Virus record (IMG/VR): IMGVR_UViG_2671181100_000006
Span: 1-22,939 of that record
Reading direction: 5' to 3' (one strand)
DNA length: 22,939 nt
Source: a virus
Taxonomy: Duplodnaviria > Heunggongvirae > Uroviricota > Caudoviricetes
Below the pieces are notes generated by a model, which saw only the letters and a list, made by a program, of their open reading frames with translations, did not search any database and was not told the DNA's origin. Made by a program: the position numbers and the translations under genes. Position 1 is the stretch's first letter, and every line of letters starts with the position of its first letter. Shown one piece after another: positions 3,726-22,939 of this stretch.

Positions 3726-4386
3726 TGCTGTTATCCTCACAGCAGTGGTGCCGCCCCTCTGGGTCAGTGGATACATGTCCACAGATATCGCACTCTATTT
3801 CATCCAGCACTACCGACGCTAGCTGCTCTTTGATGTGCAATCGCGGCTCACCATCTTTCGGCTCAGGCCACACCCGCGCCTTATTCACCGCTAGTTTTTC
3901 AATCATCGCCTTAGTGATTTGCTCGTCAGTGATACCGGCGCGGCGTTGGGCATCCCATAGCAGAAACTGCAAATCGGCCCACTCGCTGAGGTCGCCTGGT
4001 GCTGCTGCGGCTTCCAGCGCTTCTTTGCTTAAGTGTTTCAGTGGACCAATCGGGCCGACATTACCAAAGGTGGCCTGAGACCACGCGGTGTGCTCGCGGC
4101 GAACGTGCTCGCGGTCCGGCGCTGGCTGCGGTATGGCGTAGAGTTGCGCACCAAAGTCAGGAAGTTCGCCAGTGACCTGGACGAACTTTTGTTTACCTCC
4201 GTCAATTCCTAGCGGGTAGTAAGCTCTAATCTCTGCCACCGGCTCACTGTCCATTTCGGCCAGCGCGATGCGAGCCAGCTCCTCGGCCTCTTCAGCTGGC
4301 AGCATGACGTTGCTTCCGGCTCCGTAGGTTTCACGCCATGACTTAATTTTTTCCAGACGTTCTCTGGTTATGATTGATTGGGTCAT
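3718..4386 (-). CDS. MazG-like nucleotide pyrophosphohydrolase-type protein (DUF550 / dATP-dGTP pyrophosphohydrolase-like)
   Basis: 222 aa with AAGGAG RBS. C-terminal region (...SKEALEAAAAPGDLSEWADLQFLLWDAQRRAGITDEQITKAMIEKLAVNKARVWPEP...) resembles MazG-type all-alpha NTP pyrophosphohydrolase segments seen in prophage proteins. Assignment from memory, not a search. Confidence 0.5.
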   Translation of the reverse strand: MTQSIITRERLEKIKSWRETYGAGSNVMLPAEEAEELARIALAEMDSEPVAEIRAYYPLGIDGGKQKFVQVTGELPDFGAQLYAIPQPAPDREHVRREHTAWSQATFGNVGPIGPLKHLSKEALEAAAAPGDLSEWADLQFLLWDAQRRAGITDEQITKAMIEKLAVNKARVWPEPKDGEPRLHIKEQLASVVLDEIECDICGHVSTDPEGRHHCCEDNSND

Positions 4387-5456
4387 TAGCTGGACTCCTT
4401 ATCATTAGTTACAGATAAGTTTTTATTCACGATGGCATCCATCAATCGTGATGCAGCAGCCTTCTGGGCAGAGACATTGGCAATGACCGTTGGCCTGGAT
4501 TTCTCGCAGCTGGCGCAAATACCATCCCATGATGAAATGAGGAAGAAATCTTCACGATCGGCAATGCCGGTATTCATTACCAGGTCCTCAATCATCAGCG
4601 TGACCCCGCGAACTCCCCGGCCTTCACTTAACCTCTGTACTGCGTAGCCGAAGGCGTTAATCATCACAGCATGGAACTGGATGTACTCGCGTTTGTACTC
4701 AGCCTGATTCGTACCTCGGCGAATATCATCTAAACCAGTCAGCATCAGCCAAGCATTCCACAACCCCTCAAGATCATCCTGTGAGCAGGAATCTGAAAAT
4801 TTTGCCGTGGCATCACTAAGGGCTTTGAAGCTGACCCACTTATCACTTTTCGCAGGAACGACGTTATGCTCAAAATCGGTGACTTCAGAAAAGACGTCGT
4901 GTGAACTGATAAAACTGACCATCTCCTGCGCGTTCTTATCGCGCCCGTTATAGGCCATGTTGATAGCCGCAGATGGCTTCGAAACATTGTTGTTAATGTC
5001 GGAAAAGAACTGCTGCCGTGTTTTCAACGAGAGCTTATGTGTGAGCATTAGTGGTACGTGGATTGGTTCGCCAACTGTGCGGCAAAATTCGGCGATCCCC
5101 GCTGCACGGTGCTGGCCGTCGAAAAGCTTAATTTCTGCATCCATAGGGAAGCGCACAACACCAACGTTGGTATTGCCGAATTCCTGAAACTCAATCTCAG
5201 AGTTACAGTTACCGACCAGCGGTGGGATAATGAAGGGCTCTTTATTTTCGTGAGCATTAACCAGATATTCATAGAATTTCTTAGCACGCGCTGGGTTAAT
5301 TTCACGCTGAGAACGTTCTAAAGTATCTCCGTAATTATCACTGGCGAGGACGCGTGCCAAGGTTCGTGCTGGCACTGTCATCATAAGGACAATCGCTCCG
5401 CCCTGAACGCCGCGAGACGCAGGGAACTCAAAGAAATAATCTCCAACTATGCTCAT
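4386..5456 (-). CDS. DGQHR-domain protein (DndB-like, ParB/Srx superfamily)
   Basis: Contains the literal DGQHR motif (KLFDGQHRAAGI). Start placed at the ATG (MSIVGDYFF...) rather than the upstream GTG on the ORF track. Stop overlaps the start of the downstream gene by 1 nt. Confidence 0.7.
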   Translation of the reverse strand: MSIVGDYFFEFPASRGVQGGAIVLMMTVPARTLARVLASDNYGDTLERSQREINPARAKKFYEYLVNAHENKEPFIIPPLVGNCNSEIEFQEFGNTNVGVVRFPMDAEIKLFDGQHRAAGIAEFCRTVGEPIHVPLMLTHKLSLKTRQQFFSDINNNVSKPSAAINMAYNGRDKNAQEMVSFISSHDVFSEVTDFEHNVVPAKSDKWVSFKALSDATAKFSDSCSQDDLEGLWNAWLMLTGLDDIRRGTNQAEYKREYIQFHAVMINAFGYAVQRLSEGRGVRGVTLMIEDLVMNTGIADREDFFLISSWDGICASCEKSRPTVIANVSAQKAAASRLMDAIVNKNLSVTNDKESS

Positions 5457-5587
5457 GCTACCCACCACTCAATAAACATGCAGATACCAACGGTTACTAC
5501 GGCAATAAGCACCCAGCAGATCACATCGAACAAGGCGGCGAACCGACGTAGGGTGTATTTGCTATAATTCTCATGATCAATATTCAT
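5453..5587 (-). CDS. Small hydrophobic peptide (44 aa, predicted single transmembrane helix), not on the ORF track
   Basis: My own translation of the minus strand: MNIDHENYSKYTLRRFAALFDVICWVLIAVVTVGICMFIEWWVA. Its ATG overlaps the ParB-like stop (ATGA) and its TGA overlaps the DGQHR start (ATGA), suggesting translational coupling. Confidence 0.4.
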   Translation of the reverse strand: MNIDHENYSKYTLRRFAALFDVICWVLIAVVTVGICMFIEWWVA

Positions 5588-6755: not shown

Positions 6756-7673
6756 TCAGGCTGCTGGTTTTTGTTCTTCGGGCTCTTTGTAGGCGAGCAG
6801 ATCACAAAGCTGGTTAATTACTTTACAGAACTGGAACATGTCCGTACCTGCCTGGTGACGCCAGCGGTAGGCTTTGTCGTCATCATCAGAATAATCATTA
6901 TCCTTGGTATCGATCCGCCGGAAATGGAACTTATCTGTAAGCAGAAAAGAGACGCCGCAGCCTCTTAATTCCATGTTATCGACGATAAAACCTGTGTTCA
7001 GGCTCTCCAGAATTTCACTGGTAACGGAAGTGTGTTCCGCAGAGTAGCGAATAACTTCTTTCTGTTCTGCCAGGCGGGATAGCTGGACATAATCACCGAC
7101 CTCAAACCCGGCAAAGGCTGATTCTTCGCCGTCCAGATGGTTTTTAAGGCGCGTTGTCAGGCCGTTTTTGATATCACTGATGTTGATCGTGACTGTTTTT
7201 ACTGAGCCAATCACTTTAACCAGCATCGCCCCGACTAAATTGGCAATATTTTTATTGGCGGAATTAATGATCAGCAGATTTTCTTCAGTGTTATACAGGA
7301 CCAGGATCAGAGACGACTTGATGAATGCCTGTTTGCAGAGCTGAACCTTAGCATCCTGGATAATGTTGTTACGGTCAGCGCGCTTCAATTTCTGACCACA
7401 CGCATTTTCGATGCGCTGGATACGCTCATTGGCTTCTTTCATTACGACGTGCTGGGGGATTATTTTCTCATCGCGGCGAACCACGATTGCATAACCGCCA
7501 GTAATTGGCGTAACCAGCTCGCCAGTAATCGGATTAGGGACGAAGGAAGCCCGCGCGAACTCCGTTTCTGTAAGTTCAGAGTAGGGCAATTCCTGCAGGT
7601 GCCCTTCAACCGCTTCAATGCTGGGCAAAGTAGCCCGATAGACAATGGCGTTACGTAACTTTGATATTTTCAT
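6756..7673 (-). CDS. rdgC: Recombination-associated protein RdgC homologue
   Basis: 305 aa, similar in length to E. coli RdgC (303 aa). N-terminus (MKISKLRNAIVYRATLP...) resembles the RdgC N-terminus (…FKNLMVYRL…). GAGGA RBS. Confidence 0.65.
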   Translation of the reverse strand: MKISKLRNAIVYRATLPSIEAVEGHLQELPYSELTETEFARASFVPNPITGELVTPITGGYAIVVRRDEKIIPQHVVMKEANERIQRIENACGQKLKRADRNNIIQDAKVQLCKQAFIKSSLILVLYNTEENLLIINSANKNIANLVGAMLVKVIGSVKTVTINISDIKNGLTTRLKNHLDGEESAFAGFEVGDYVQLSRLAEQKEVIRYSAEHTSVTSEILESLNTGFIVDNMELRGCGVSFLLTDKFHFRRIDTKDNDYSDDDDKAYRWRHQAGTDMFQFCKVINQLCDLLAYKEPEEQKPAA

Positions 7674-8424: not shown

Positions 8425-9120
8425 CTATCCATGCCGTTTAAAGGACTGAGACTGGCTTATTAAAACCTTTCCATAGATATAGAATCTGTGTTCATTCTCT
8501 TTAGTTATATTCCATTCTCTATAACGAGGGTTATCAGAGATGACTAGCAGTTGGTCTGGTATCATCTGCAGGCGTTTAACATAAACTTTTCCATCAAAAC
8601 CAAAGACGTAAATCCCATCCCCATCGAACTCATTGATAGTTACGTCCACAAAGATTAGGTCGCCAGGCTCAATCGTTGAGGCCATGCTATCACCGCGAAC
8701 GTTGATGACCTTTACTCCAGATGGAGTCCTGCCACCAAACATTGCCAATGCCTGATCATTGCTGAACTCGATAGCATGAATGACATCTATGACGTCACTA
8801 CCGTGTATATGTCCTGCCCCGGCGCTTGCGCTCACATCAAGTACCTCGACTCTGTATACATCCACATCCTTTACGGGAGATGCATATTTTTCACTGTTTA
8901 TATGTACAGTAGTATCATTTTCGTCAGAGGTAAATAGGTCAGGTACACTTACGCTTAAAGCTTGAGCAAGTCGGTTAAGTGTCTGTTCTGAAAACTGCTT
9001 TTGTTTACCAGTTTCAAGCCTGGAAATATTGGCAGCATCAACGCCCACAGCTTCTGCAAGCTCTGCGATTTTAATGTTCTTCGCTAAGCGAAGTTGTCGT
9101 ATGCGAGATCCTATTTTCAT
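8425..9120 (-). CDS. cI: CI-like prophage repressor (XRE-type HTH plus S24 LexA-like autopeptidase domain)
   Basis: N-terminal HTH (IRQLRLAKNIKIAELAEAVGVDAANISRLETG) and C-terminal S24 motifs (GDSM...VKRL). Divergent from cro across an operator-containing intergenic region. Confidence 0.85.
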   Translation of the reverse strand: MKIGSRIRQLRLAKNIKIAELAEAVGVDAANISRLETGKQKQFSEQTLNRLAQALSVSVPDLFTSDENDTTVHINSEKYASPVKDVDVYRVEVLDVSASAGAGHIHGSDVIDVIHAIEFSNDQALAMFGGRTPSGVKVINVRGDSMASTIEPGDLIFVDVTINEFDGDGIYVFGFDGKVYVKRLQMIPDQLLVISDNPRYREWNITKENEHRFYIYGKVLISQSQSFKRHG

Positions 9121-12536: not shown

Positions 12537-13517
12537 ATGAGAGCACTACTAACCCCTGAGATTGCCCCACGCATGGGCGTTGTTCTGCTTCGCCCAGGCG
12601 CTGATCTCATGCCGATGTTCAGGAGAGGGCGGGTACTGATTGAGCCTGCACCGGAAAAATACAGCGACTACGCAACCGGCGCTATCCCTCCCGCCACGCA
12701 GCCACTGGCAGAAGACCCGGTTTTGAAGCCAGTCTTCGAAAACAAAGACGTCATTCTGCGCGCGGGTGGTATCAGCTCGCTGGAGGCCGAGCTGGAGCGT
12801 CGTTTTGAATGCCAGTATCCGCATGGCTCGTGGCACAGCGAAAATTTTACGCTGTTCCGGCATGAGCCTGGCAGCATCCGCCTTTGCTGGGCCTGCGATA
12901 ACCTGGTGCGTGATCAGTACACAGAGACGCTGGCAGGCATTGCGCGTGGGAACCTGGTATCCTGGTTGATAACGGTCATCCGCTCACAGCTGGGGTTCAA
13001 CGAAGACCATCAACTGACGATCCCAGAGTTGTGCTGGTGGCTGGTAATAAACAATCTGGCGCACGTCATCCCTGAATCGCTGGCCCGGAAAGCCCTGCGA
13101 TTGCCGGAAATAAAGCATCAACCGGTGATGAAGGAGAGCGATATTGTGCCGGAGCCAGCGGCGAGCGAAGTGGTGCAGAAAAAGATTCTCGGTCTTCGCG
13201 TAGATCCTGAAACGCCGGAATCATTTATGCTGCGACCAAAGCGCCGCCGCTGGGTAAACGAGAGCTGGACGCGCTGGGTTAAGTCTCAGTCGTGTGTCTG
13301 CTGTAACAAACAAGCAGATGATCCCCATCACCTGATAGGCCACGGACAAGGTGGAATGGGAACAAAAGCGCATGACCTGTTTGTGTTGCCGCTTTGCAGA
13401 GCGCATCACGACGAGTTGCACGCTGACACCGTGGCATTTGAGGAGAAGCACGGCTCACAGCTGGAGCTGCTGTTTCGATTTCTGGATCGTTCGCTGGCAA
13501 TTAGCGTGCTGGCATAG
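12537..13517 (+). CDS. Phage protein with C-terminal DUF968-like / HNH-like Cys-His motif
   Basis: C-terminus CVCCNKQADDPHHLIGHGQGGMGTKAHDLFVLPLCRAHHDELH resembles HNH/DUF968 zinc-binding regions common in lambdoid nin regions. Assignment from memory. Confidence 0.5.
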   Translation: MRALLTPEIAPRMGVVLLRPGADLMPMFRRGRVLIEPAPEKYSDYATGAIPPATQPLAEDPVLKPVFENKDVILRAGGISSLEAELERRFECQYPHGSWHSENFTLFRHEPGSIRLCWACDNLVRDQYTETLAGIARGNLVSWLITVIRSQLGFNEDHQLTIPELCWWLVINNLAHVIPESLARKALRLPEIKHQPVMKESDIVPEPAASEVVQKKILGLRVDPETPESFMLRPKRRRWVNESWTRWVKSQSCVCCNKQADDPHHLIGHGQGGMGTKAHDLFVLPLCRAHHDELHADTVAFEEKHGSQLELLFRFLDRSLAISVLA

Positions 13518-13530
13518 TGGAGAACGCATA

Positions 13531-14109
13531 ATGATTAACCCGTCCGAGGTTGGAAAAGCTGGTGAAATGGTCAGGCTGAAAACGCTGGAGGCCATCTGGA
13601 TTCAGGGGAAGCTGCGCATGTGGGGCCGCTGGTCTTACATCGGCGGCGGTAGTGGCGGCAATATGTTTAACCAGTTACTGGCTTCCGGGAAAGTCACTAA
13701 AACAGCCATCAACGAAGCATTACGCCGGATGAAGAAGTCCGGCATCTCGAAGCCAGAGCTTGAGGCGTTTTTTCGTGAAATACTCGCGGGGAAAAACAAA
13801 AGCGGCCTGGCCTTCTGTACAGACGATGAAGGACTGCTGATTGATAAGGTACTGGGGGCAGTCCTCATTACGGGTGGTCATAAAGAGCTATACCACCTGC
13901 TGGTGGAGCATTACCGGTTACGGAAGAGCAAACGCCGCATAGCGGAAGAGCTCTATGAAAAGCATCCAGACTGGTGCTTTATGACATGCAGACGAAGAGT
14001 TGATACATGGCTAAGTTTGGCAGAATCGATGCTGTACGCACCAATGTGTGACGCATTCGGCACAAATGGCGACAGATTTTACTTGCAAAGTGAGCCAGAA
14101 ACTGCTTGA
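13531..14109 (+). CDS. Q: Late-gene antiterminator Q (phage 82-type family)
   Basis: Start placed at the ATG (MINPSEV...) with GGAG RBS, in frame with the longer track ORF. Motif KLRMWGRW resembles the ERWGAW signature of phage 82-type Q proteins. Followed by a terminator. Confidence 0.65.
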   Translation: MINPSEVGKAGEMVRLKTLEAIWIQGKLRMWGRWSYIGGGSGGNMFNQLLASGKVTKTAINEALRRMKKSGISKPELEAFFREILAGKNKSGLAFCTDDEGLLIDKVLGAVLITGGHKELYHLLVEHYRLRKSKRRIAEELYEKHPDWCFMTCRRRVDTWLSLAESMLYAPMCDAFGTNGDRFYLQSEPETA

Positions 14110-14665: not shown

Positions 14666-15052
14666 ATGTCCGAACCAATAACCGGCACAGGCTTAGCTGG
14701 TGGCGCTTTAACTGGGGCGAGTGTTTACGGGCTATTAACCGGTACAGACTACGGTGTTGTGTTCGGGGCATTTGCTGGTTCCGTCTTTTATATAGCGACA
14801 GCGGCCGATTTGAGCGCCCCACGACGGATGGCATATTTCGTTGTGTCCTATATTGCTGGAGTTCTGTGCTCCGGGCTGGTCGGTTCTAAGTTATCCGACC
14901 TTACCGGGTACAACGATAAGCCTCTGGATGCAATTGGTGCCGTAATCATTTCGGCATTGGCCGTAAAAATACTCACCTTCCTGAACAATCAGGATATTGG
15001 CTCGCTGGTGGCGCTAATAACGCGCCGGGGAGGTTCCGGTGGTACTAAATGA
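14666..15052 (+). CDS. Holin (multi-TMD small membrane protein)
   Basis: 128-aa Gly/Ala-rich hydrophobic protein with several predicted TM helices and a charged C-terminus, first gene of the lysis cassette. RBS GAGGGGGA. Confidence 0.6.
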   Translation: MSEPITGTGLAGGALTGASVYGLLTGTDYGVVFGAFAGSVFYIATAADLSAPRRMAYFVVSYIAGVLCSGLVGSKLSDLTGYNDKPLDAIGAVIISALAVKILTFLNNQDIGSLVALITRRGGSGGTK

Positions 15053-15320
15053 TCCTACTGCAACCATCAATGCGCTGTTATGTGCTGGTGTCGTTGTTAC
15101 GTTGATGTTCTATCGCCGCAGAGACTCACGTCATCGTAAGTGGGTGTCGCGGCTGGCATGGCTGATAACAGTGATTTACAGCTCTGTGCCGTTGGCGTAT
15201 CTGTGCGGCATCTATCCCTATTCATCATGGCCCACCATTGCGGCCAATATCATGATCCTTGTTGTGCTGCTGAGCGTAAGAGGCAATGTAGCGCGGCTGG
15301 TTGATGCACTGAGGCACTAA
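15039..15320 (+). CDS. Small membrane protein of the lysis cassette (second holin / antiholin-like)
   Basis: 93 aa with three hydrophobic segments. GTG start preceded by GGGAGG. Overlaps the holin 3' end and its stop overlaps the endolysin start. Confidence 0.5.
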   Translation: MVLNDPTATINALLCAGVVVTLMFYRRRDSRHRKWVSRLAWLITVIYSSVPLAYLCGIYPYSSWPTIAANIMILVVLLSVRGNVARLVDALRH

Positions 15321-15949
15321 TGAATCAAACACAATTCCAGAAGGCGGCTGGTATCAGCGCCGGGTTAGCTGCGCGCTGGTATCCGCATATTACAGCTGCG
15401 ATGAAAGAGTTCGGCATCACTGCTCCACTCGATCAGGCAATGTTCATTGCTCAATGCGGCCATGAAAGCCTCGGTTTTAACAGGGTGGTGGAGAATTTCA
15501 ACTACAGCATCGCCGGGCTTGCTGATTTTGTTCGTTACGGCAGGTTAACGCAGGATCAGGCCAATTCCCTCGGGCGTAGCCAGTCGGAAACAGTGTTACC
15601 TCTGGAGCGCCAGCGGGCTATCGCCAACATTGTCTATAGCAAGCGGTTGGGTAACAACAGGGCAACTGATGGATGGGCTTATCGTGGGCGCGGACTTATT
15701 CAAATAACCGGATTGTCAAATTACCGGGACTGCGGTAACGGGCTGAAGGTTGATCTAGTGGCACAGCCAGAATTACTGGAGCAGTCCTCGTACGCGGCCC
15801 GTAGTGCAGCGTGGTTCTATGTCTCAAAAGGTTGCTTGAAATATCCGGGTGAGCTTGTCCGGGTTACTCAGATTATCAACGGCGGACAAAACGGGATTAA
15901 TAACCGGCGCGCTCGCTTCCTGAAAGCAAAATCGGTACTGGTGGTGTGA
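15320..15949 (+). CDS. Endolysin, glycoside hydrolase family 19 (chitinase-like lysozyme)
   Basis: GH19 signature ...WAYRGRGLIQITGLSNYRDCG... and catalytic-region CGHESLGF. Sits between the holin genes and the spanins. Confidence 0.75.
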   Translation: MNQTQFQKAAGISAGLAARWYPHITAAMKEFGITAPLDQAMFIAQCGHESLGFNRVVENFNYSIAGLADFVRYGRLTQDQANSLGRSQSETVLPLERQRAIANIVYSKRLGNNRATDGWAYRGRGLIQITGLSNYRDCGNGLKVDLVAQPELLEQSSYAARSAAWFYVSKGCLKYPGELVRVTQIINGGQNGINNRRARFLKAKSVLVV

Positions 15950-16227
15950 TCATGGGAATCGAAGCTATCGCGGGGCTGGTGGTTGTCATCCTGGGTGCTA
16001 TCGCTGGCGCGTTCGGCATCGGCCATGCTCGCGGGACCAGTAAGGCAGAAGCCAAAGCCGATCAGCAGCGTACCGAAGAGAACGCCGCCGCCACCGTCGC
16101 CGCGGCAGAACGTAAGGCGGAAGTTGTGAAAGAGGCAAGCGATGTACAGCAAACCGTTAGTCATATGCCTGATGACGATGTTGATCGCGAGCTGCGCGAA
16201 AAGTTTACCCGCCCCGGTAGTCGTTGA
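15946..16227 (+). CDS. i-spanin (Rz-like inner-membrane spanin subunit)
   Basis: N-terminal TM segment (IAGLVVVILGAIAGAFGI) followed by a charged periplasmic domain. Start is GTG at 15946 or ATG at 15952. Confidence 0.6.
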   Translation: MIMGIEAIAGLVVVILGAIAGAFGIGHARGTSKAEAKADQQRTEENAAATVAAAERKAEVVKEASDVQQTVSHMPDDDVDRELREKFTRPGSR

Positions 16228-16357
16228 TACGGCCTGCAGCTGGGTGAGGGTCATCTACCTGACCGACCACGATATTGACGTGCTGGATAAGCAGACCAAG
16301 CGCGACATTCTGGCGCATAACAAAGCAGTGGAAGTCAACTGCCAGAAAGGGAAGTGA
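16142..16357 (+). CDS. o-spanin (Rz1-like outer-membrane lipoprotein), overlapping the i-spanin in another frame
   Basis: Signal peptide with lipobox (MTMLIASC). Begins inside the i-spanin gene in a different frame and extends beyond it. Confidence 0.6.
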   Translation: MYSKPLVICLMTMLIASCAKSLPAPVVVDTACSWVRVIYLTDHDIDVLDKQTKRDILAHNKAVEVNCQKGK

Positions 16358-16664: not shown

Positions 16665-16682
16665 TTAACCAAAAACAATCGC

Positions 16683-16708
16683 AAGGTCGCCAATGGCGGC
16701 CTTTTTTA
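16683..16708 (+). terminator. Rho-independent terminator
   Basis: AAGGTCGCC-aat-GGCGGCCTT (one G-U wobble) followed by TTTTTT. Confidence 0.5.
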
Positions 16709-16731
16709 TTGCCAGAAGCAGGAGAAGAAGC

Positions 16732-16926
16732 ATGTTAACAGTAAAAGTAATGTCACCAGATGGTGGCGAAGAAATCCATTGCGGCCTGAGCGTTGGTTTC
16801 AACCCCAATCAGCAGAGTATCGCAGTGTCGGGAATGGACCAGAACGTTTTCCTGAAGCAGGGAGAAGTGGCGTACGTGATGAACGCAAACGGAAAGACCA
16901 TTTCCCGTTACGAGCACTTGACCTGA
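16732..16926 (+). CDS. Hypothetical small protein (64 aa)
   Basis: Start at the internal ATG (MLTVKVMSPDGG...) preceded by AGGAG; the longer track ORF would run through the terminator. Confidence 0.5.
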   Translation: MLTVKVMSPDGGEEIHCGLSVGFNPNQQSIAVSGMDQNVFLKQGEVAYVMNANGKTISRYEHLT

Positions 16927-17264
16927 CAATAAGCAGCACTGGCGCCCTTCATTGAAGGGCATCAATAATGATAAACCGAAGCATCTGCCTTAAGTGTTAT
17001 AAAAAACCCCGTGGAGGAAATCCCAAAGCTACGGGGTGCTGTACAGCCAGCCAATGACTGATTGTAGCCACGAAGTTGGTTTATTTTCTACTGGTTGAGA
17101 ATAAAACTGAGAGCCAGGAAGGCTTGAGAGTGGCTCATTCATGAGCTCACGGGTAGAACGGCAGACTTTGTCATGGCAGAGCAAAGTTATAAGTTAGTTT
17201 AGGTAACATTTCGGATATAACAAGCGTAGCGGGGTATTCCTAATAATGGAGCACCGCAGCTAAA

Positions 17265-17303
17265 GCATTACAGGAGCCATTCACCGAGTGGCTTCGATAA
17301 TGC
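17265..17303. repeat. Copy 1 of a ~40-bp nested stem-loop element (GCATTACAG-gAGCCAttcaccgagTGGCTtc-GATAATGC)
   Basis: Outer inverted repeat GCATTA/TAATGC; inner stem AGCCA/TGGCT; loop TTCACCGAG. Lies 25 nt upstream of the ATG at 17329. Confidence 0.6.
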
Positions 17304-17328
17304 TCCCCACATCGCACAGAGGTAAGAC

Positions 17329-17574
17329 ATGGCAGAGATCACCGTATCCGAACAAATCCGCCTGGATATCATCAAAAAAGTTAACTACGACACCGCAGCG
17401 GCCAAGCTGGCCATTGACTGGGTAGGGGACAGCTATCTGAAGTCTGAGCTATTCGCAGACTCTTTCGATCGTGTTTTCACGGAAAGCGAGATTGTCTCGA
17501 AGACCCGTAAGGCCATCCAGGAAGCGACCGAAGCGCTGGCGCTGTTTGATACCAGCGCAGAGCAGGCGAGCTAA
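17329..17574 (+). CDS. Hypothetical protein (81 aa)
   Basis: RBS GAGGT. Flanked on both sides by copies of the stem-loop element. Confidence 0.6.
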   Translation: MAEITVSEQIRLDIIKKVNYDTAAAKLAIDWVGDSYLKSELFADSFDRVFTESEIVSKTRKAIQEATEALALFDTSAEQAS

Positions 17575-17575
17575 G

Positions 17576-17614
17576 GCATTACAGCAGGCATTCACTGAGT
17601 GCCTGTGATAATGC
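17576..17614. repeat. Copy 2 of the stem-loop element (GCATTACAGc-AGGCAttcactgagTGCCTg-TGATAATGC)
   Basis: Same outer inverted repeat. Inner stem is AGGCA/TGCCT, a compensatory G-C swap relative to copy 1 that preserves pairing. Begins right after the stop codon of the 17329-17574 gene. Confidence 0.6.
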
Positions 17615-17679
17615 CGTGCTCAATTGCGGTACTGTTGTTTCCCCTGTTAATCTGTCCCAAACAAACCGATGGGGATAGG

Positions 17680-18060
17680 GACGTGAAAAAGTTACTTTTT
17701 GCAGCATTAATTGGTGTTTCAGCTTTAACAATTACCGCATGTGCGCCAACAGTCCAGAAAGTAGATTACAACCAGAGATCAATGCTTTTATCTCTTGGAA
17801 TGAATAAAAACGACGTCATGCAGATCATGGGGTCGCCACGCAGGACTGATGTGAACCAGGAACGCGAACGCTGGATATACTGGAATAAGGCTCTCTATGG
17901 TTACACAATCATTGATAACGAACAATTGGCTAACGATCGACTGGTTATAACGTTCGTTAATGGTAAGGTCACCAAGTGGGGTCAGCAAACGCTGACTGAT
18001 GACATAATGGAGTCATCACAAAAGAGTGCACAGGCTTATGCTGAGGCATTCAAGAAATAG
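17680..18060 (+). CDS. Phage lipoprotein, BamE/SmpA-OmlA-like (moron)
   Basis: Start at GTG (MKKLLFAALIGVSALTITAC...) giving a signal peptide plus lipobox ITAC; the longer track ORF start is unlikely. BamE-like assignment (...LSLGMNKNDVMQIMGSPRR...ERWIYW...) is from memory. Confidence 0.55.
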   Translation, partial: DVKKLLFAALIGVSALTITACAPTVQKVDYNQRSMLLSLGMNKNDVMQIMGSPRRTDVNQERERWIYWNKALYGYTIIDNEQLANDRLVITFVNGKVTKWGQQTLTDDIMESSQKSAQAYAEAFKK

Positions 18061-18079
18061 ACATTTCAGTCAAATGATA

Positions 18080-18104
18080 ACCTCGCTTTGGCGGGGTTTT
18101 TTTA
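18080..18104 (+). terminator. Rho-independent terminator
   Basis: CCTCGC-tttg-GCGGGG (one G-U wobble) followed by T8. Confidence 0.6.
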
Positions 18105-18125
18105 TATCTAAAAGAGGTAAAACCG

Positions 18126-18311
18126 ATGAGCTTTAAACATGAACTTGGTCAGGTGGTAACCGTTACTATCAGTGAAGAAAAAGGGCATATCAAAGCTCGC
18201 GCTGAATATACGCATAGCCCCAATCAGTACCTTATTCATTATCACGCAGCAGACGGGCGAGCTGTAGACGCATGGTTTGAAGAAGGGGAGCTGTCTCCAT
18301 CTGCACTGTAG
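18126..18311 (+). CDS. Hypothetical small protein (61 aa)
   Basis: RBS AAAGAGG; compact ORF between a terminator and copy 3 of the stem-loop element. Confidence 0.5.
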   Translation: MSFKHELGQVVTVTISEEKGHIKARAEYTHSPNQYLIHYHAADGRAVDAWFEEGELSPSAL

Positions 18312-18317
18312 ACGCAC

Positions 18318-18360
18318 GCATTACAGAAGCCCTTCACATTGCGAGGAGCTTTGATAATGC
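18318..18360. repeat. Copy 3 of the stem-loop element (GCATTACAG-AAGCCCttcacattgcgagGAGCTTt-GATAATGC), more diverged
   Basis: Same outer GCATTACAG...GATAATGC arms. Inner region has an insertion and one stem mismatch. Begins 7 nt after the stop of the 18126-18311 gene. Confidence 0.5.
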
Positions 18361-18498
18361 GAATGAATATCATTATCGATGGATGGAAGGGGGTGTGTAG
18401 ACGTTTAGATGTCTAAATGTCTACATGGTCGATTTCTCCTGGCAATGTGCAAATGATAGTCATTATCATTTAAGGGTCCTCCCAGAGGGGGAGGTTAC

Positions 18499-18520: not shown

Positions 18521-18631
18521 AAACGGCTAGTTTTCATTTTTCATAGTCATCATCATCATGTGCACAGGTTATTGATTTTCCAGATGTCGGATTTTCAATG
18601 ATGTCGAATCGTATAAAAAGTGTTCACCATC

Positions 18632-19123
18632 ATGGATCAGGAAATCGCTACTTTAAAACTCAATATCAACCAGCTTGCCGGGATTACTGGCGTACACCGG
18701 CAGACCGTCGCTACCAGGCTAAAAAATGTCAGTCCCGCCCAGGGAAGCAACAGCAAACTTAAGTTGTATCTTGTCACCGATATTCTGACAGAATTAATGA
18801 TCCCGACGGTTTCCTCATCGAATCTTGAAGAGATGACACCCCCTGATCGCCTCGCTCACTGGAAAGCAGAAAACGAGCGGTTGAAATTTGAAGTAGATAC
18901 CAAACAACTTATCCCCGCCGAAGACGTCGCACGTGAATTTTCAATGATGGCGAAAGCCGTCGTCATGGTACTTGAAACACTTCCGGACATTCTTGAGCGC
19001 GACTGTGCACTTACGCCGGTTGCGGTATCACGCGTGCAAAGCGTGATTGATGACCTGCGCGATCAGGTTGCCCAAAAAGTAATGGACGCTGAACCAGAGG
19101 AGGATGAGCCAGAGGAGGACTGA
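18632..19123 (+). CDS. Terminase small subunit (lambda Nu1-like, N-terminal winged HTH)
   Basis: N-terminus LKLNINQLAGITGVHRQTVATRL... parallels lambda Nu1 (VNKKQLADIFGASIRTIQNW...); acidic C-terminus. Start is ATG at 18632 or GTG at 18620. Stop overlaps the large-subunit start (ATGA). Confidence 0.7.
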   Translation: MDQEIATLKLNINQLAGITGVHRQTVATRLKNVSPAQGSNSKLKLYLVTDILTELMIPTVSSSNLEEMTPPDRLAHWKAENERLKFEVDTKQLIPAEDVAREFSMMAKAVVMVLETLPDILERDCALTPVAVSRVQSVIDDLRDQVAQKVMDAEPEEDEPEED

Positions 19124-21231
19124 TGACAAAACGGGCATCTGCCAGGGGGATACGCCGCGATGTCTCCGGTATTCTTCGTGCCCCACGTCGTATGCAGGTG
19201 GCCGATGCGGTCAGCTCATATATGCGTGTGCCGATGGGGGCGGGTAACTCCGTACCATGGGACCCCAATCTGGCCCCTTATATTATTGAGCCGATGAATT
19301 GTCTGGCATCCCGTGAATATGATGCGGTGGTGTTTGTCGGACCGGCCCGAACCGGGAAAACGATTGGCCTGATTGATGGCTGGATTGTCTACAACATCGT
19401 TTGTGATCCCGCTGACATGCTGGTTATTCAGGTCTCCGAAGAGAAAGCGCGTGAACATTCCAAGAAACGCCTCGATCGCACATTCCGGTGTAGTCCGGAA
19501 GTAAAATCGCGACTCAGTCCGCGTCGTAACGACAATAACGTTCACGACCGCACCTTCCGGGCCGGTAACTATCTCAAACTGGGCTGGCCGTCAGTCAACA
19601 TTATGTCGTCGTCAGACTATAAAAGCGTGGCGTTGACTGACTATGACCGCTTTCCTGAAGATATCGACGGGGAAGGTGATGCATTTTCCCTGGGTTCGAA
19701 ACGTACCACTACGTTTATGTCCAGCGGCATGACTCTGGTTGAGAGTTCACCTGGCCGAGATATTCGTGACACGAAATGGCGACCAAACACCGCACATGAG
19801 GCACCGCCGACTACCGGCATATTATCGTTGTTTAATCGTGGTGACCGCCGCCGCCTTTACTGGCCGTGTCCGCATTGCGGAGAATATTTTCAGCCGGAGG
19901 TAGCCAATATGACGGGCTACCGGGATTCCCTTGATCCCGTTGTGGCAAGTGAGTCTGCATATCTCCAGTGCCCGGCCTGCAAAGGCAGGATCACCGCAGA
20001 TATGAAACGTGAACTGAATATCCGCCATGTCTGGTTACGCGATGGAGAAAAAATAGATCGTGATGGCAACAGATTTGGGGAGCCGCGGCGATCACGCATC
20101 GCTTCATTCTGGATGGAGGGGCCTGCGGCTGCATATCAGACATGGTCGCAGATGATATACAAATTCCTGACTGCTGAGCAGGAATATGAGTCCACCCAGA
20201 GTGAAGAGACGCTGAAAACGGTAGTTAATACCGACTTTGGTCGGCCTTATCTACCCCGAGCCAGTCTCGAACAACGTAAGAGTGAGCTGCTCGAACGACG
20301 CGCTGAAGACGTGCCGAAGCGATCTGTACCAGATGGTGTGCTCTTTATGACTGCAACCGTTGATGTGCAGGGCGGTAAATCCCGTCGTTTCGTGGTTCAG
20401 GTGACTGGCTACGGTGAGCAGGGTGAGAGATGGCTGGTAGATCGCTACAACATCCGCCAGTCTCTGCGGGCAAACGAGCACGGTGAATGTTACTCCATCG
20501 ATCCGGCAAGTTACCCGGAAGACTGGGATTTACTTTTGTCTGACGTGTTCGAAAAGTCATGGCCCTTAGCGAGTAACCCGTCAAAACGCATGCGGCTCAT
20601 GGCGATGGCTGTCGATTCCGGCGGTGAGGATGGTGTCACCGATAACGCATATAAGTTCTGGCGTAAGTGCCGCCGGGATGGGCTTGGTAAAAAGATTTTC
20701 CTCTTCAAGGGCGACAGTGTCCGACGCTCAAAACTAATTACCCGAACATTTCCTGATAACACTGACAGATCAACTCGCCGGGCAAAAGCCGCTGGCGATG
20801 TGCCGCTTTACCTTCTTCAGACTGATGCGCTGAAAGATCAGGTGAATAACGCCCTGTGGCGAGAATCACCCGGCCCGAACTATGTGCATTTCCCTAAATG
20901 GCTCGGCAGCTGGTTTTACGATGAGCTGACCTATGAGGAACGTTCACCCGATGGAAAATGGAGCAAACCGGGCCGAGGTCCGAATGAAGCTTTCGATCTA
21001 CTCGTTTATGCCGATGCGCTGGCCATATTGCACGGATACGAAAAGATCAAATGGCCGGATGCGCCTGAATGGGCGAGGCGGACAACGTGGATCGAAGAAA
21101 GCACGCCGGAAACTGGCGAAGTGTCACCCACGTTATCAGCAAAAACGACCCATAGCAGAAAAAAACGGAAGGCAAATAAGCCGGATGTTGAAAACAATCC
21201 GTGGACTACATCATCAGGAGGCTGGGTGTGA
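19123..21231 (+). CDS. Terminase large subunit (lambda GpA-like)
   Basis: 702 aa. Recognisable similarity to lambda gpA: WPCPHCGEYF vs ACPHCGEEQY, VNTDFG vs VNTTLG, NEAFDLLVYADALA vs NEALDCFVYALAAL. RBS GAGGAGG. Confidence 0.9.
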   Translation: MTKRASARGIRRDVSGILRAPRRMQVADAVSSYMRVPMGAGNSVPWDPNLAPYIIEPMNCLASREYDAVVFVGPARTGKTIGLIDGWIVYNIVCDPADMLVIQVSEEKAREHSKKRLDRTFRCSPEVKSRLSPRRNDNNVHDRTFRAGNYLKLGWPSVNIMSSSDYKSVALTDYDRFPEDIDGEGDAFSLGSKRTTTFMSSGMTLVESSPGRDIRDTKWRPNTAHEAPPTTGILSLFNRGDRRRLYWPCPHCGEYFQPEVANMTGYRDSLDPVVASESAYLQCPACKGRITADMKRELNIRHVWLRDGEKIDRDGNRFGEPRRSRIASFWMEGPAAAYQTWSQMIYKFLTAEQEYESTQSEETLKTVVNTDFGRPYLPRASLEQRKSELLERRAEDVPKRSVPDGVLFMTATVDVQGGKSRRFVVQVTGYGEQGERWLVDRYNIRQSLRANEHGECYSIDPASYPEDWDLLLSDVFEKSWPLASNPSKRMRLMAMAVDSGGEDGVTDNAYKFWRKCRRDGLGKKIFLFKGDSVRRSKLITRTFPDNTDRSTRRAKAAGDVPLYLLQTDALKDQVNNALWRESPGPNYVHFPKWLGSWFYDELTYEERSPDGKWSKPGRGPNEAFDLLVYADALAILHGYEKIKWPDAPEWARRTTWIEESTPETGEVSPTLSAKTTHSRKKRKANKPDVENNPWTTSSGGWV

Positions 21232-21443
21232 AACAAACCGATATTGAATCCATTATCCAGCGTTATACCGATGCGGAAATAGCTGTGCTGGATGGAAAGT
21301 CTATTACATTCAACGGACAGCAGATGACGCTGGAGAACCTGTCCGAAATCCGCAAGGGGCGTCAGGAATGGGAGCGCCGTCTTGCATCCCTGTTGGCTCA
21401 ACGTCACGGGCGACCTGGTTATAAACTCGCGAGGTTTCCATGA
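21228..21443 (+). CDS. Head-tail joining protein (lambda gpW-like)
   Basis: Start placed at GTG 21228 (AGGAGG RBS; GTGA overlap with the terminase stop). Small protein in the W position, with a C-terminal ...RHGRPGYKLARF resembling gpW ...RRGPAGFYV. Confidence 0.55.
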   Translation: MKQTDIESIIQRYTDAEIAVLDGKSITFNGQQMTLENLSEIRKGRQEWERRLASLLAQRHGRPGYKLARFP

Positions 21444-22939
21444 GCCTGTTAGATGATGCGATTGGCGTCTTTTCCCCTGGATGGAAAGCGGCGCGGTTAC
21501 GTTCGAGAGCAATGATACAGGCATATGAAGCTGTTAAGCCTACTCGTACGCATAAGGCCCGCAGGGAAAATCGTTCCGCTAACCAGCTTAGTCAGATGGG
21601 AGCTGTTTCACTTCGAGAACAGGCTCGCTGGTTGGACAATAACCACGATCTGGTTATTGGTGTATTCGATAAGCTCGAGGAAAGGGTAGTTGGAGCTAAA
21701 GGAATTATTGTTGAGCCACACCCGGTTCTAAAAAACGGAAATATAGCAAAAAAACTGGCAGAACAAATCAGAACGAAGTGGGCCGAATGGTCAGTCAGCC
21801 CTGAGGTTACCGGACAGTTTACCCGCCCGATGCTTGAGCGGTTGATGCTCAGGAGTTGGCTCAGGGACGGGGAAATTTTCGCTCAGATGGTGAGTGGCTC
21901 AGCGCAGGGACTTGATCCAGTGGCTGGCGTACCTTTCTGGCTTGAAGCGCTAGAGGCTGATTTTGTGCCGATGACCAACAATGAGTCACAGCAACTTTGT
22001 CAGGGGGTTTATGTCGATAACTGGGGGCGCCCGAAAAAGTACCTGGTTTATAAAAGTCTGCCTGTTACCGGCCGTCAATTGGATACGAAAGATGTCGATG
22101 CCGGGAATATGCTTCATCTCAAATTTACCCGCCGTCTTCATCAGACCCGAGGGACCTCTCTCCTTTCTGGTGTGCTCATGCGCCTCAGTGCGCTGAAAGA
22201 ATACGAGGATGCGGAGTTAACGGCAGCACGTATTGCAGCTGCGCTGGGGATGTACATAAAAAAAGGAGACGGGCAAAGTTTTACGGACGATACCACCAAA
22301 GACAATCGTGACGTAATGATTGAGCCAGGCATTATTTATGATGATCTGCTGCCCGGTGAAGACATCGGGATGATCAAGTCCGACAGACCAAACCCTAACC
22401 TTGAAACATTCCGAAATGGGCAATTGCGCGCTGTCGCTGCCGGTGCTCGTCTCAGCTTCTCCAGTACAGCCAGAAACTACGATGGAACATACAGTGCCCA
22501 GCGCCAGGAGTTGGTTGAATCAACAGATGGTTATCTAATCCTTCAGGACTGGTTCATCGGCGCAATCACCCGGCCAATGTACCGAAACTGGTTAAAAATG
22601 GCGGTGGCTTCTGGCGAAATTCAGCTACCACGTGGGCTGGATATGGCGTCGCTTTACACCGCAGTTTATTCCGGTCCGGTCATGCCATGGATCGACCCAG
22701 TTAAAGAAGCTAATGCCTGGAAAGCGCAAATCCGAGGTGGTGCTGCGACAGAATCTGACTGGGTGCGAGCTAGCGGACGCAATCCGGATGATGTGAAACG
22801 TCGTCGCAAGGCTGAAGTTGATGATAACCGCGAACTGGGACTGGTGTATGACACCGATCCTGCAAACGATAAAGGAGGCACCAGTGCCGAAGTCAAAGAA
22901 CCGGACGCCCCGTCGTCCGAAAGCCAGCGCAAGAAGTAA
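21440..22939 (+). CDS. Portal protein (lambda gpB-like)
   Basis: 499-aa protein immediately after the W-like gene, with the size and position of a lambda-type portal. Stop codon at the window end. Confidence 0.85.
   Translation: MSLLDDAIGVFSPGWKAARLRSRAMIQAYEAVKPTRTHKARRENRSANQLSQMGAVSLREQARWLDNNHDLVIGVFDKLEERVVGAKGIIVEPHPVLKNGNIAKKLAEQIRTKWAEWSVSPEVTGQFTRPMLERLMLRSWLRDGEIFAQMVSGSAQGLDPVAGVPFWLEALEADFVPMTNNESQQLCQGVYVDNWGRPKKYLVYKSLPVTGRQLDTKDVDAGNMLHLKFTRRLHQTRGTSLLSGVLMRLSALKEYEDAELTAARIAAALGMYIKKGDGQSFTDDTTKDNRDVMIEPGIIYDDLLPGEDIGMIKSDRPNPNLETFRNGQLRAVAAGARLSFSSTARNYDGTYSAQRQELVESTDGYLILQDWFIGAITRPMYRNWLKMAVASGEIQLPRGLDMASLYTAVYSGPVMPWIDPVKEANAWKAQIRGGAATESDWVRASGRNPDDVKRRRKAEVDDNRELGLVYDTDPANDKGGTSAEVKEPDAPSSESQRKK

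Follow-up and report, generated by a model that had tools for sequence, protein, structure and literature searches.

A widespread hairpin family in the accessory-gene interval of Enterobacterales temperate phages, with mosaic junctions at its edges

A 22,939-nt stretch of phage DNA (hereafter, the window) contains three copies and one relic of a ca. 40-nt element that represents a conserved hairpin family of wide distribution. Temperate phages and phage-plasmids of Enterobacterales carry this hairpin in their accessory-gene (moron) interval, where it is a 3' appendage located directly behind the stop codons of small accessory genes. Its fold is under selection on the sense strand of the late operon, and its edges coincide precisely with mosaic junctions between phages. 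Judging from sequence comparisons, the element may be an intercistronic RNA processing or stability hairpin that doubles as a recombination joint; we put the probability of this reading at roughly 0.4.

The copies and their neighboring genes are listed in Table 1. The pattern GCATTACAG-N15-30-GATAATGC was found at exactly three sites in the window, all on the + strand, and was matched in none of 100 dinucleotide-preserving shuffles, which bears out the three copies reported in the initial annotation. A covariance-model search of the 22.9-kb window (model R1; 64.8 bits, E 7e-17 for copy 1) revealed no copy beyond these three and a decayed fourth one, which was matched weakly at positions 16944-16960 (10.2 bits). 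When folded as + strand RNA, copies 1, 2, and 3 each formed a single nested hairpin, as had been proposed, with free energies of −23.0, −26.8, and −19.6 kcal/mol and z-scores of −6.5, −6.5, and −4.7, respectively; the minus-strand folds were weaker on the whole (−18.3, −21.1, and −20.7 kcal/mol). The paired G-C swap noticed earlier between the inner stems of copies 1 and 2 is correct but understated, since the two copies differ by two double compensatory changes (G.U to C-G, and C-G to G-C), and additionally by one G-C to G.U change. An extra pair just outside the arms also covaries, being A-U in copy 1, G-C in copy 2, and C-G in copy 3; with the flanking A17264-U17304 pair counted, the outer stem of copy 1 is 7 bp long. 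Copy 3 has a longer loop (8 nt) and a single A.C mismatch.

Table 1. Copies of the element and neighboring genes in the window.
Feature	Positions	Strand	Remarks
Element copy 1	17265..17303	+	GAGCC-type inner stem
Element copy 2	17576..17614	+	CAGGC-type inner stem, the commonest type; R1 64.9 bits
Element copy 3	18318..18360	+	AAGCC-type inner stem; R1 51.7 bits
Decayed fourth copy	16933..16971	+	GCAGCACTG-GCGCCCTTCATTGAAGGGCATC-AATAATGA; repeat family D1
DUF2560 gene, 81 aa	17329..17574	+	Pfam PF10834, E 4e-19; element copies on both sides
77-aa ORF	16693..16926	+	phrog_3909, unknown function; stop precedes decayed copy
61-aa ORF	18126..18311	+	phrog_8618, unknown function; stop precedes copy 3
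BamE-like lipoprotein gene	17683..18060	+	Pfam PF04355; downstream of copy 2

Copies 2 and 3 begin 1 nt past the TAA of the DUF2560 ORF and 6 nt past the TAG of the 61-aa ORF, respectively. Copy 1 begins 1 nt past the TAA of a 5-codon relic (ATGGAGCACCGCAGCTAA) and is followed, 25 nt downstream, by the ATG of the DUF2560 gene, so the placement given earlier, after a stop codon or before a small gene, holds for all three. The BamE-like lipoprotein gene ends in its own intrinsic terminator (18079-18098), not in an element; for STnc100, only a weak, sub-threshold match was seen, at this terminator. The decayed fourth copy begins 7 nt past the stop of the 77-aa ORF. Its outer stem is broken, while the inner hairpin is retained, and other phages (L082, L101, and L121) have its downstream flank, TAAACCGAAGCATCTGCCTTAAGTG, behind a canonical element. 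This relic had been overlooked in the initial annotation, as had the wide distribution of the element, its strict location between lysis and terminase genes, and the mosaic junctions at its edges.

The exact arms were matched in at least 120 viral contigs, which yielded 88 distinct sequences, 72 of them hairpins. Among the carriers are phages phi80, mEp390, phiP27, ST64B, Fels-1, and ZF40, many Klebsiella prophages, and phage-plasmids. Matches were present in 47 phage records, all labeled as Enterobacterales phages except EKP1, a doubtfully labeled "Elizabethkingia" phage, and in 196 plasmid records, chiefly of ca. 54-kb Klebsiella phage-plasmids. Copy 2 is 100% identical to the element in phi80, EKP1, E. 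coli DH10B, and E. coli Nissle 1917, and elements of its type occur in 94 of 5426 complete E. coli genomes, at a single place per genome; E. coli copies whose context was checked always lay inside a prophage. The DH10B element (NC_010473, positions 1369291-1369330) sits in a phi80 prophage, the Nissle 1917 element is located at 451464-451503 of NZ_CP022686, and DH5alpha probably carries the element too. The number of copies ranges from one to four per phage (the whole genome of phi80 contains one, at 44298-44337), and several copies within one contig are invariably found on the same strand.

The element is annotated in none of the carrier records, and a search of the literature by sequence and by description found no earlier account of it. 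An Rfam 15 scan of the window produced no match on the elements at E <= 1; over positions 17230-17650, at E <= 10, only a chance microRNA match on the minus strand was obtained. With a relaxed 15-base pattern, none of the 120 matches listed from bacterial genomes was a real hairpin; these were chance matches in unrelated taxa. The element is a candidate new RNA family for Rfam. The earlier view that it is not a REP or ERIC sequence is upheld by the lack of sequence relationship and of matching Rfam families. REP stabilize upstream mRNA and affect translation when located within ca. 15 nt of a stop codon. Like the element, REP/BIME are imperfect palindromes of ca. 35-40 nt with conserved stems, transcribed at gene 3' ends or between cistrons. 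However, REP/BIME are present in hundreds of copies per chromosome, and their sequences are unrelated to that of the element, which occupies its one place per E. coli genome in a single orientation, without clustered inverted arrays and with no RAYT transposase association seen.

Across the family, an outer stem of 6-7 bp (GCAUUA/UAAUGC) is separated from the 10-bp inner stem by a 2x2 internal loop (CA/GA) that does not vary, and the apical loop is 3-8 nt long. In the 72 distinct sequences, 96.6% of cells pair, compared to 34-52% with the partners slid. Both-sided changes were observed at seven pairs (132 cells), and the covariation score was reached by 0 of 500 shuffles. Related phages thus provided both further copies and covariation across genomes. 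Read on the sense strand, the inner stems contain 510 Watson-Crick, 122 G.U, and 10 A.C pairs, and + strand RNA was the stabler in 64 of 72 instances (−22.0 vs. −17.4 kcal/mol, p = 8e-12). Because G.U far exceed A.C pairs in the inner stem, the fold is selected on the sense strand, which is most simply read as selection at the level of RNA. G.T is the best-tolerated mismatch also in folded single-stranded DNA, and a DNA-level role is therefore compatible with the strand asymmetry. Structure is not the sole target of selection: no covariation was seen in the arms, the CA/GA loop, or the apical UUC...GAG (which includes a U.G wobble), and their sequences are conserved. The proposal of the initial annotation that structure rather than sequence is selected thus stands for structure, as the covariation demonstrates, but fails in its second part.

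The conserved positions (AUUA-CA-G / Y-GA-UAAU) could be read by a sequence-specific RNA-binding factor other than RNase III, of either host or phage origin, with the hairpin insulating or tuning translation termination and reinitiation between cistrons. Conservation of the outer arms and the CA/GA loop without covariation, even in divergent copies, would be accounted for by such a factor, and the stem abuts the stop codon; judging from the size of the ribosome footprint, a ribosome terminating there would open the outer stem and halt at the base of the inner one. We nevertheless find such a factor unlikely, since no candidate protein was found, the carriers have no obvious gene in common, and no known motif or Rfam family matches. 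The DUF2560 gene is the commonest cassette accompanying the element, which directly follows the DUF2560 stop in 64 of 80 homologous loci. It is not an obligate partner, however, and its product was rejected as a specific partner, since the gene is missing from 34 of 51 element loci and from the whole of phi80.

Of the roles suggested initially, RNA processing or stability and recognition by a protein are the leading candidates. In the reading that we favor, the element would be a signal for processing and stability between cistrons of the late polycistronic transcript, with a mode of action like that of phage T7 RNase III sites or REP stabilizers. Host RNase III would recognize the ca. 19-bp helix via a canonical distal box, presented in the element as U-A and then U.G beside the loop-closing C-G. 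Binding would follow, or cleavage of one strand at the CA/GA internal loop or close to it; the upstream cistron would be uncoupled from its downstream neighbor and retain a hairpin that protects its 3' end.

The element and the T7 sites (R0.3, R0.5, R1.1, R1.3, R4.7, and R18.5) are alike in being repeated intercistronic hairpins of a polycistronic phage transcript, in which an internal loop separates an upper stem of ca. 10 bp from a lower stem rich in AU. The upper stem of T7 R1.1, GGUCAUUC-GCAA-GAGUGGCC, has the same 10-bp length as that of the element, and its top (C-G, U-A, U.G; CAUUC...GAGUG) matches the conserved element top exactly. In contrast, the internal loop is asymmetric in T7 (3-4 nt vs. 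5 nt) and a symmetric 2x2 CA/GA in the element, whose lower-stem sequence is invariant and differs from that of T7; moreover, the element is carried by temperate phages and is restricted to one interval. Covariance-model comparisons with the T7 sites were non-significant in both directions and suggestive by rank at most. The R1 model searched against T7 produced weak, non-significant matches at R3.8, R1.1, and R18.5 (E 0.24-2.8). Of the matches of the R2 model, made from seven T7 sites, in the window, copy 2 was the second best (E 1.5) and copy 1 the ninth (E 6.1), both non-significant.

The distal box of RNase III substrates consists of U-A and then U.G next to the loop-closing pair, ca. 11 bp from the cut, and the distal-box substitutions tested all weaken RNase III binding (PMC1540722, PMC8708148). 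In the element, the U-A pair is found in 69 of 72 sequences and the U.G pair in 53 (otherwise C-G in 13 and U-A in 4). The loop-closing pair is C-G in most of the 72, and pairs neighboring the box covary freely. RNase III substrates contain a helix of ca. 20 bp, often with an internal loop that confines the cut to one strand; with 7 and 10 bp and the 2x2 loop, the element has ca. 19 stacked positions, at the short end of the range given in PMC1540722. The proximal box, 4 bp by the cut, has an in vitro optimum of GC; AU/UA; AU; AU/UA, and CG or GC at its position 2 inhibits RNase III binding in vitro. The element positions that correspond to this box in the R1.1 register (pairs 14-37, 13-38, 12-39, and the A11.G40 mismatch) differ from the optimum in the 72 sequences: pair 14-37 is AU/UA in 65, pair 13-38 is C-G in 28, A-U in 22, and G.U in 16, and pair 12-39 is G-C in 51 and G.U in 20. 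The commonest element type has C-G, which is inhibitory to binding in vitro, at position 2. Moving the register by 1 bp fits proximal positions 1 and 2 but alters the spacing between the distal and proximal boxes. RNase III recognition also does not explain the invariant outer-arm sequence and the CA/GA loop.

The element is located between lysis and terminase genes in phi80, ZF40, mEp390, EKP1, phiP27, Fels-1, and ST64B, and likewise in the prophages of E. coli DH10B and Nissle 1917. It is co-oriented with the late genes wherever this was checked (eight annotated phages and two E. coli prophages). A same-strand ORF ends −1 to +12 nt ahead of the element in 92 of 129 contexts (71%), and in 71 of these 92 the ORF end lies within −1 to +3. 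The inner stem is inherited together with the upstream gene: over 26 contexts, the 3' end of DUF2560 is combined with 12 downstream families and a single inner-stem type, while the DUF2560 leader is preceded by seven different inner-stem types. On the downstream side, 22 unrelated families begin at one identical nucleotide, directly after GATAATG, the last arm base varies with the family downstream, and a CAGGC-type inner stem is retained in 63 of 64 junctions; crossovers seem to favor the 3' arm. Comparison of phi80 with the Nissle prophage revealed a sharp junction at the 5' edge of the element, with 100% identity downstream. The element is dispensable, since near-identical genes are also found beside decayed copies, solo 5' arms, or empty sites. 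If the RNA hairpin doubles as a joint, the invariant arms would provide short identical sequences at each cassette border, and inter-phage recombination would therefore resolve there, yielding leader-ORF-hairpin cassettes.

The same junctions could be produced by a recombination linker or selfish palindrome that has no RNA role, similar to promoter-early stem-loop (PeSL) cassettes or REP, and persists by promoting its own spread and gene shuffling. In addition to junctions at both edges, the low copy number within the most plastic region, the dispensability of the element, and the identity of its commonest type among unrelated phages point in this direction. A pure DNA linker requires no fold, however, and yet compensatory changes keep the pairing, a specific U.G wobble is conserved, G.U exceeds A.C by 12:1 on the sense strand, and both the co-orientation with transcription and the shared strand of multiple copies in a contig are left unaccounted for. 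No target-site duplications or associated transposase were found (the "transposase" beside the ZF40 copy is, by Pfam, a phage metallopeptidase). We therefore regard this explanation as improbable. PeSL cassettes lie in hyperplastic regions of T4-type phages (PMC2839356). They resemble the element in that a short conserved motif with a stem-loop borders small ORFs of unknown function, in the most plastic genome region, and falls at the junctions where shuffling occurs. PeSL includes an early promoter, while none was detected at the element, whose phages and sequence are unrelated and whose pairing is under clear sense-strand selection.

A more specific recombinational role would be that of an attC-like site, a hairpin formed in + strand single-stranded DNA and recognized by a host or phage recombinase that exchanges single-gene leader-ORF-hairpin cassettes in the lysis-terminase interval, as a phage counterpart of the integron array. 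As in attC, the ends are short and conserved, the center is variable with conserved, covarying structure, and the fold is strand-specific; the site directly follows the stops of small, uniformly oriented, promoterless ORFs, the center stays with the ORF ahead of it, and crossing over is close to the 3' end, the last base going with the next cassette. The uniform start of the 22 downstream families, the retained inner stems, and the sharp 5'-edge junction also speak for such exchange. Against this, arms GCATTAC and GATAATGC agree by eye with RYYYAAC/GTTRRRY at 5 of 7 and 4 of 7 positions, which is no match, and extrahelical bases are absent, the only irregularity being the symmetric 2x2 loop. 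No intI, attI, or Pc accompanies the element, and no intI-like or HUH/Y1 enzyme was found nearby. The window encodes a single tyrosine recombinase, a phage integrase of the ordinary arm-binding kind (positions 1-1167, ca. 16 kb from the elements), and in the annotated phages none lies beside the elements, save for the EKP1 integrase ca. 1 kb downstream. The ZF40 metallopeptidase supplies no such enzyme, and no gene is common to all of the annotated carrier phages compared. The folded strand is the coding strand, and junctions occur at both edges, as predicted by short-homology recombination. Finally, the hairpins have only −10 to −13 kcal/mol when folded as DNA, and in these double-stranded DNA phages a single-stranded stage for the + strand is not evident. 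An attC-like function is thus doubtful. The fuller proposal of a phage-borne integron-like system, in which accessory genes with their own 3' structured site would be inserted, excised, and exchanged by a not-yet-recognized host or phage recombinase, the reaction taking place on the folded strand and being resolved at the 3' arm after GATAATG, appears somewhat less probable still.

Finally, the arms could constitute a double-stranded DNA signal that drives or regulates the downstream accessory gene, either with GATAAT of the 3' arm as a −10 element (in some copies an extended one, TGTGATAAT), or with the arms as operator half-sites resembling Fur-box hexamers. GATAAT is invariant, TGTGATAAT is present in the common type, several copies have an intrinsic terminator ahead of them and a gene 25 nt behind, in a terminator-promoter-gene layout, and a Fur-box-like array adjoins copy 3 and continues from its 3' arm. 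However, a promoter scan found no σ70-like site at any of the three copies, a −35 element at a workable spacing is absent, and the extended −10 lacks a conserved TG (CTTCGATAAT and CATCGATAAT types). A duplex site would also leave the inner-stem covariation and the G.U/A.C asymmetry without explanation, and we consider this possibility very remote.

Several other identities were rejected. An attenuator, one of the roles initially suggested, is disfavored, as is a terminator: a terminator scan found neither an intrinsic terminator nor a U-tract at any of the three copies, and downstream flanks vary, with a minority beginning with T4-5. A frameshift or readthrough stimulator was rejected, since the frame relative to the stop varies. 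The phi80 "M3 RNA", an RNase P substrate, is placed by its record at 36229-36288 as an oop homologue, far from the phi80 element. The prophage sRNAs Pas and STnc100 occupy different loci, near Q and the holin gene. A CRISPR-repeat mimic, a ToxI-like repeat, a T-loop or anticodon mimic, a dif/Xer site, an ops/RfaH site, and a small ribozyme were dropped by eye because of sequence mismatch.

Accessory genes of temperate phages shape bacterial virulence and fitness, and both their expression inside the late operon and their movement between phages are poorly understood. The element provides a searchable 40-nt signature on many such genes in phages of Escherichia, Klebsiella, Salmonella, Pectobacterium, and Edwardsiella, which coincides with the exact points of module exchange and is useful as a marker of cassette borders in prophage annotation. 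If it is an RNase III-type signal, temperate phages would also have mRNA segmentation of the T7 style; as a recombination site, it would provide a mechanism for the capture of morons.

The window covers the left portion of a lambdoid-type prophage. The arm pattern GCATTACAG-N15-30-GATAATGC matched it at the three places where the initial annotation had put a nested stem-loop, all on the + strand, and gave no matches in 100 shuffles. In RNA folding, each copy formed a single hairpin, in agreement with that proposal, with a 7-bp outer stem (its outermost pair lies just beyond the coordinates first assigned), a 2 × 2 internal loop with CA opposite GA, a 10-bp inner stem, and a small apical loop. 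The compensatory swap noticed between copies 1 and 2 is real but was undercounted: two pairs carry double compensatory changes and a third goes from G-C to G.U. A covariance-model search of the window returned only copies 1–3 and a weak match at 16944–16960, which corresponds to the inner hairpin of a fourth, decayed copy; the downstream flank of this relic is identical to that found 3′ of a canonical element in three other phages.

Features of the window, with RNA folding energies (kcal/mol) and z-scores for the hairpin copies
Feature	Position	Strand	Remarks
Integrase	1–1167
DndB-like gene	4386–5468	−	early-left region; DNA sulfur-modification associated
RdgC-like gene	6756–7673	−	early-left region
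cI-like repressor	8425–9120	−
Replication genes			between cI-like repressor and Q-like antiterminator
Q-like antiterminator	13351–14109
Holins, endolysin, spanins	14666–16357
Run of small genes			between spanins and terminase genes
Terminator-like hairpin	16670–16711		AAGGTCGCCAATGGCGGCCTTTTTTATTG
Decayed fourth copy	16933–16971		just behind stop of 77-aa ORF; inner hairpin intact, outer arms mutated (GCAGCACTG...AATAATGA)
Small ORF, 51 aa	16995–17184	−
Five-codon mini-ORF	17246–17263		ATGGAGCACCGCAGCTAA
Copy 1	17265–17303	+	outermost pair A-U; apical loop 3 nt; −23.0; z −6.5
Copy 2	17576–17614	+	outermost pair G-C; apical loop 3 nt; −26.8; z −6.5
Weak Rfam matches	17991–18119
Copy 3	18318–18360	+	outermost pair C-G; apical loop 8 nt; −19.6; z −4.7
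Fur-box-like 19-mer	18359–18377	−
30-bp palindrome	18396–18425		TGTAGACGTTTAGATGTCTAAATGTCTACA
Fur-box-like 19-mer	18449–18467	+
Small terminase	18620–19123
Large terminase	19123–21231
Long ORF	21440–22939		probably the portal, by position

Both phi80 and ‘Elizabethkingia’ phage EKP1 carry a 40-bp match to copy 2 at 100% identity, and Pectobacterium phage ZF40 and mEp390 a near-identical one, the flanking genes being unrelated case by case. An exact-arm scan of IMG/VR matched at least 120 contigs; among the matches listed were 88 distinct sequences, comprising 72 strong hairpins and 16 chance matches. By BLAST, 47 phage records carry the element, among them phiP27, ST64B, Fels-1, the cdtI phage, Edwardsiella phage EPP-1, and many Klebsiella phages. 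It is also carried by 196 plasmids, nearly all of them ~54-kb non-mobilisable Klebsiella phage-plasmids, and by 94 of the 5426 complete E. coli genomes searched, those of DH5alpha, Nissle 1917, and DH10B among them; the DH10B copy is inside the phi80 prophage. A relaxed-pattern scan of bacterial genomes gave only chance matches among the matches listed. None of the records examined, the carefully annotated phi80 record included, annotates the element, Rfam 15 has no match to it, and text searches of the literature found no prior description. Outside EKP1 (L004 among the compared records, OM284015), which carries copy 2 at 2504–2542, the element was found only in phages of Enterobacterales, so the recorded Elizabethkingia host may be wrong.

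The covariation from which the initial annotation had argued extends to these related phages. Since the search pattern itself fixed the arms, and the sequences are related to one another, the pairing counts in our alignment of 72 distinct sequences are descriptive and not probabilities: standard pairs were formed in 96.6% of cells, versus 34–52% with the 3′ partners slid, and seven pairs (132 cells) had changed on both sides. The covariation score was reached by none of 500 shuffles. The inner stem contained 510 Watson–Crick, 122 G.U, and only 10 A.C pairs; as A.C on the + strand is G.U on the other, it is evidently on the + strand, the sense strand of the late operon, that the fold is maintained. 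As RNA, the + strand was more stable than the minus in 64 of the 72 (−22.0 vs. −17.4 kcal/mol, p = 8e-12); folded as DNA, the hairpins reached only −10 to −13 kcal/mol. Selection had been proposed to act on secondary structure rather than on sequence; the first part stands, but sequence is conserved too. Only about five inner pairs vary freely, while the arms, the CA/GA loop, G15-C36, an AU or UA pair at 14-37, and the apical U.G, U-A, and C-G pairs are near-invariant and never covary. Copies found by model or gene anchoring, for which exact arms were not required, still keep ATTACAG...YGATAAT, with the outermost two pairs looser (e.g., TAATGT, giving a G.U pair). This conservation indicates that some factor reads the element's sequence as well as its shape. 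We put the probability that this is a genuine family selected for folding on the sense strand at about 0.85.

In every annotated phage checked except EPP-1, the element sits in the interval between lysis cassette and terminase genes and shares their strand; EPP-1 neighbours are all ‘hypothetical’, and only co-orientation with adjacent ORFs was seen. The whole phi80 genome has one copy, and in multi-copy loci all copies share one orientation, typically 310–360 bp or 0.7–1 kb apart. A same-strand ORF of at least 50 aa ends −1 to +12 nt before the element in 92 of 129 unique contexts (−1 to +3 in 71 of those), the next start codon lies 9–60 or more nt 3′, and in 7/129 contexts the element stands behind the T-tract of an intrinsic terminator. 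No partner gene is common to all carriers; DUF2560, for one, is missing at 34 of 51 element loci and in phi80.

The inner-stem type tracks the upstream and not the downstream flank: the DUF2560 3′ end has a single type across 26 contexts and 12 downstream families, and the DUF2560 leader is preceded by seven types in 10 upstream contexts. We compared 80 loci whose DUF2560 proteins share at least 94% identity: the stop is immediately followed by an intact element in 64, of the CAGGC type in 63, and past the element come 22 unrelated families, all of which begin directly behind GATAATG. Which base ends the arm varies with the downstream family (GA in 21/24 of the largest; GT in 8/8, 4/4, and 3/3 of the next GT-type families). 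Nine or more (about 11) of the 80 keep only the 5′ arm, which just behind the stop (loci L252, L253, L260, L267, L277, L281, L282, L287, and L309) is GCATTACAG or differs from it at one or two bases (GCATTACTG, GCATTACAT, GCATTACGG) and is followed by unrelated sequence (TYGGTGCMTATGGAAG...), with one recurrent junction exactly between arm and inner stem. An empty site occurs at least once, and the upstream copy is missing from about 27 loci. Thus, the element is dispensable and subject to decay. Upstream of a point 3 nt before the element, phi80 and the Nissle 1917 prophage are unrelated, but from there on they match at 100% identity, so junctions fall at its 5′ edge too.

A cis-acting RNA element is the best fit, given the sense-strand fold, intercistronic position, co-orientation, and attachment to the gene upstream; within the Q-dependent late transcript, accessory cistrons would carry it at their 3′ ends. 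The cassette pattern could instead reflect attC-like recombination through folded DNA. That pattern can, however, follow from the RNA reading, since gene plus 3′ hairpin would be the functional unit and the invariant arms would offer relaxed phage recombinases 8–13 nt of identity at which to resolve. Such short identity does not fully explain the 3′-arm preference (63/64), which keeps an attC-like role alive, if improbable.

For a cis-acting RNA, the closest working model is the T7 RNase III sites, located from published coordinates (R1.1 at T7 nucleotide 5887, confirmed in PMC8708148), and by this analogy an RNase III-type processing or stability signal is a tentative assignment. Seven of these sites lie between genes and fold with an internal loop between an AU-rich lower stem and an upper stem of 9–10 bp (typically 10); in R1.1 the upper stem is GGUCAUUC-GCAA-GAGUGGCC, whose top is the same as the element's. 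Pertzev and Nicholson found every substitution tested in the distal-box pairs inhibitory, with cutting about 11 bp from the loop (PMC1540722). These pairs are conserved in the element (U-A 69/72, U.G 53/72) and neighbouring pairs covary, which is the most specific functional clue found. Against RNase III, the proximal-box positions misfit (position 2 is an inhibitory C-G in the commonest type), the helix is short, the invariant arms are unexplained, and covariance-model comparisons with T7 sites were not significant.

Other identities were rejected: phi80 M3 RNA is an oop homologue located elsewhere, Pas and STnc100 sRNAs belong to different loci, the ZF40 ‘transposase’ next to the element is a metallopeptidase, and copies 1–3 contain no promoter or terminator.

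Each Fur-box-like 19-mer has 3 mismatches to GATAATGATAATCATTATC (0.01 expected by chance), the first directly continuing the 3′ arm of copy 3. With the phi80 annotation ‘putative Fur-regulated protein’ in the same interval, they suggest an iron-regulated accessory gene just 5′ of the terminase genes. Between them, ~200 bp 5′ of the small terminase gene, the near-perfect palindrome may serve as an operator or belong to the cos region. The minus-strand ORF between the relic and copy 1 is a reverse-oriented insert with no family match; by eye, a hairpin (CCCCGTAGC...CCACGGGG) and T-run at about 17040–16995 form an apparent minus-strand intrinsic terminator, absent from the terminator-scan list. 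The mini-ORF, which terminates 1 nt ahead of copy 1, has final codons similar to DUF2560 gene 3′ ends (GAGCAGGCGAGCTAA) and is probably what remains of a deleted cassette. Weak sub-threshold Rfam matches (STnc100, RsmY, BSnc120) cover the 3′ end of a BamE-like lipoprotein gene and its terminator; as STnc100 is a prophage-associated sRNA family, a 3′-UTR-derived sRNA is possible there. The terminator-like hairpin is the window's best match to the T7 RNase III-site model (E 0.033), and in other phages an element copy lies directly 3′ of the same kind of terminator.

The element is a real, widespread structured element with a well-defined anatomy, strikingly associated with accessory-gene cassette borders and apparently undescribed before. 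As a cis-acting hairpin, whose function we infer, it is a familiar kind of thing; new are the conserved arms with a covarying core, the confinement to the lysis–terminase interval, and the coincidence of its edges with mosaic junctions.
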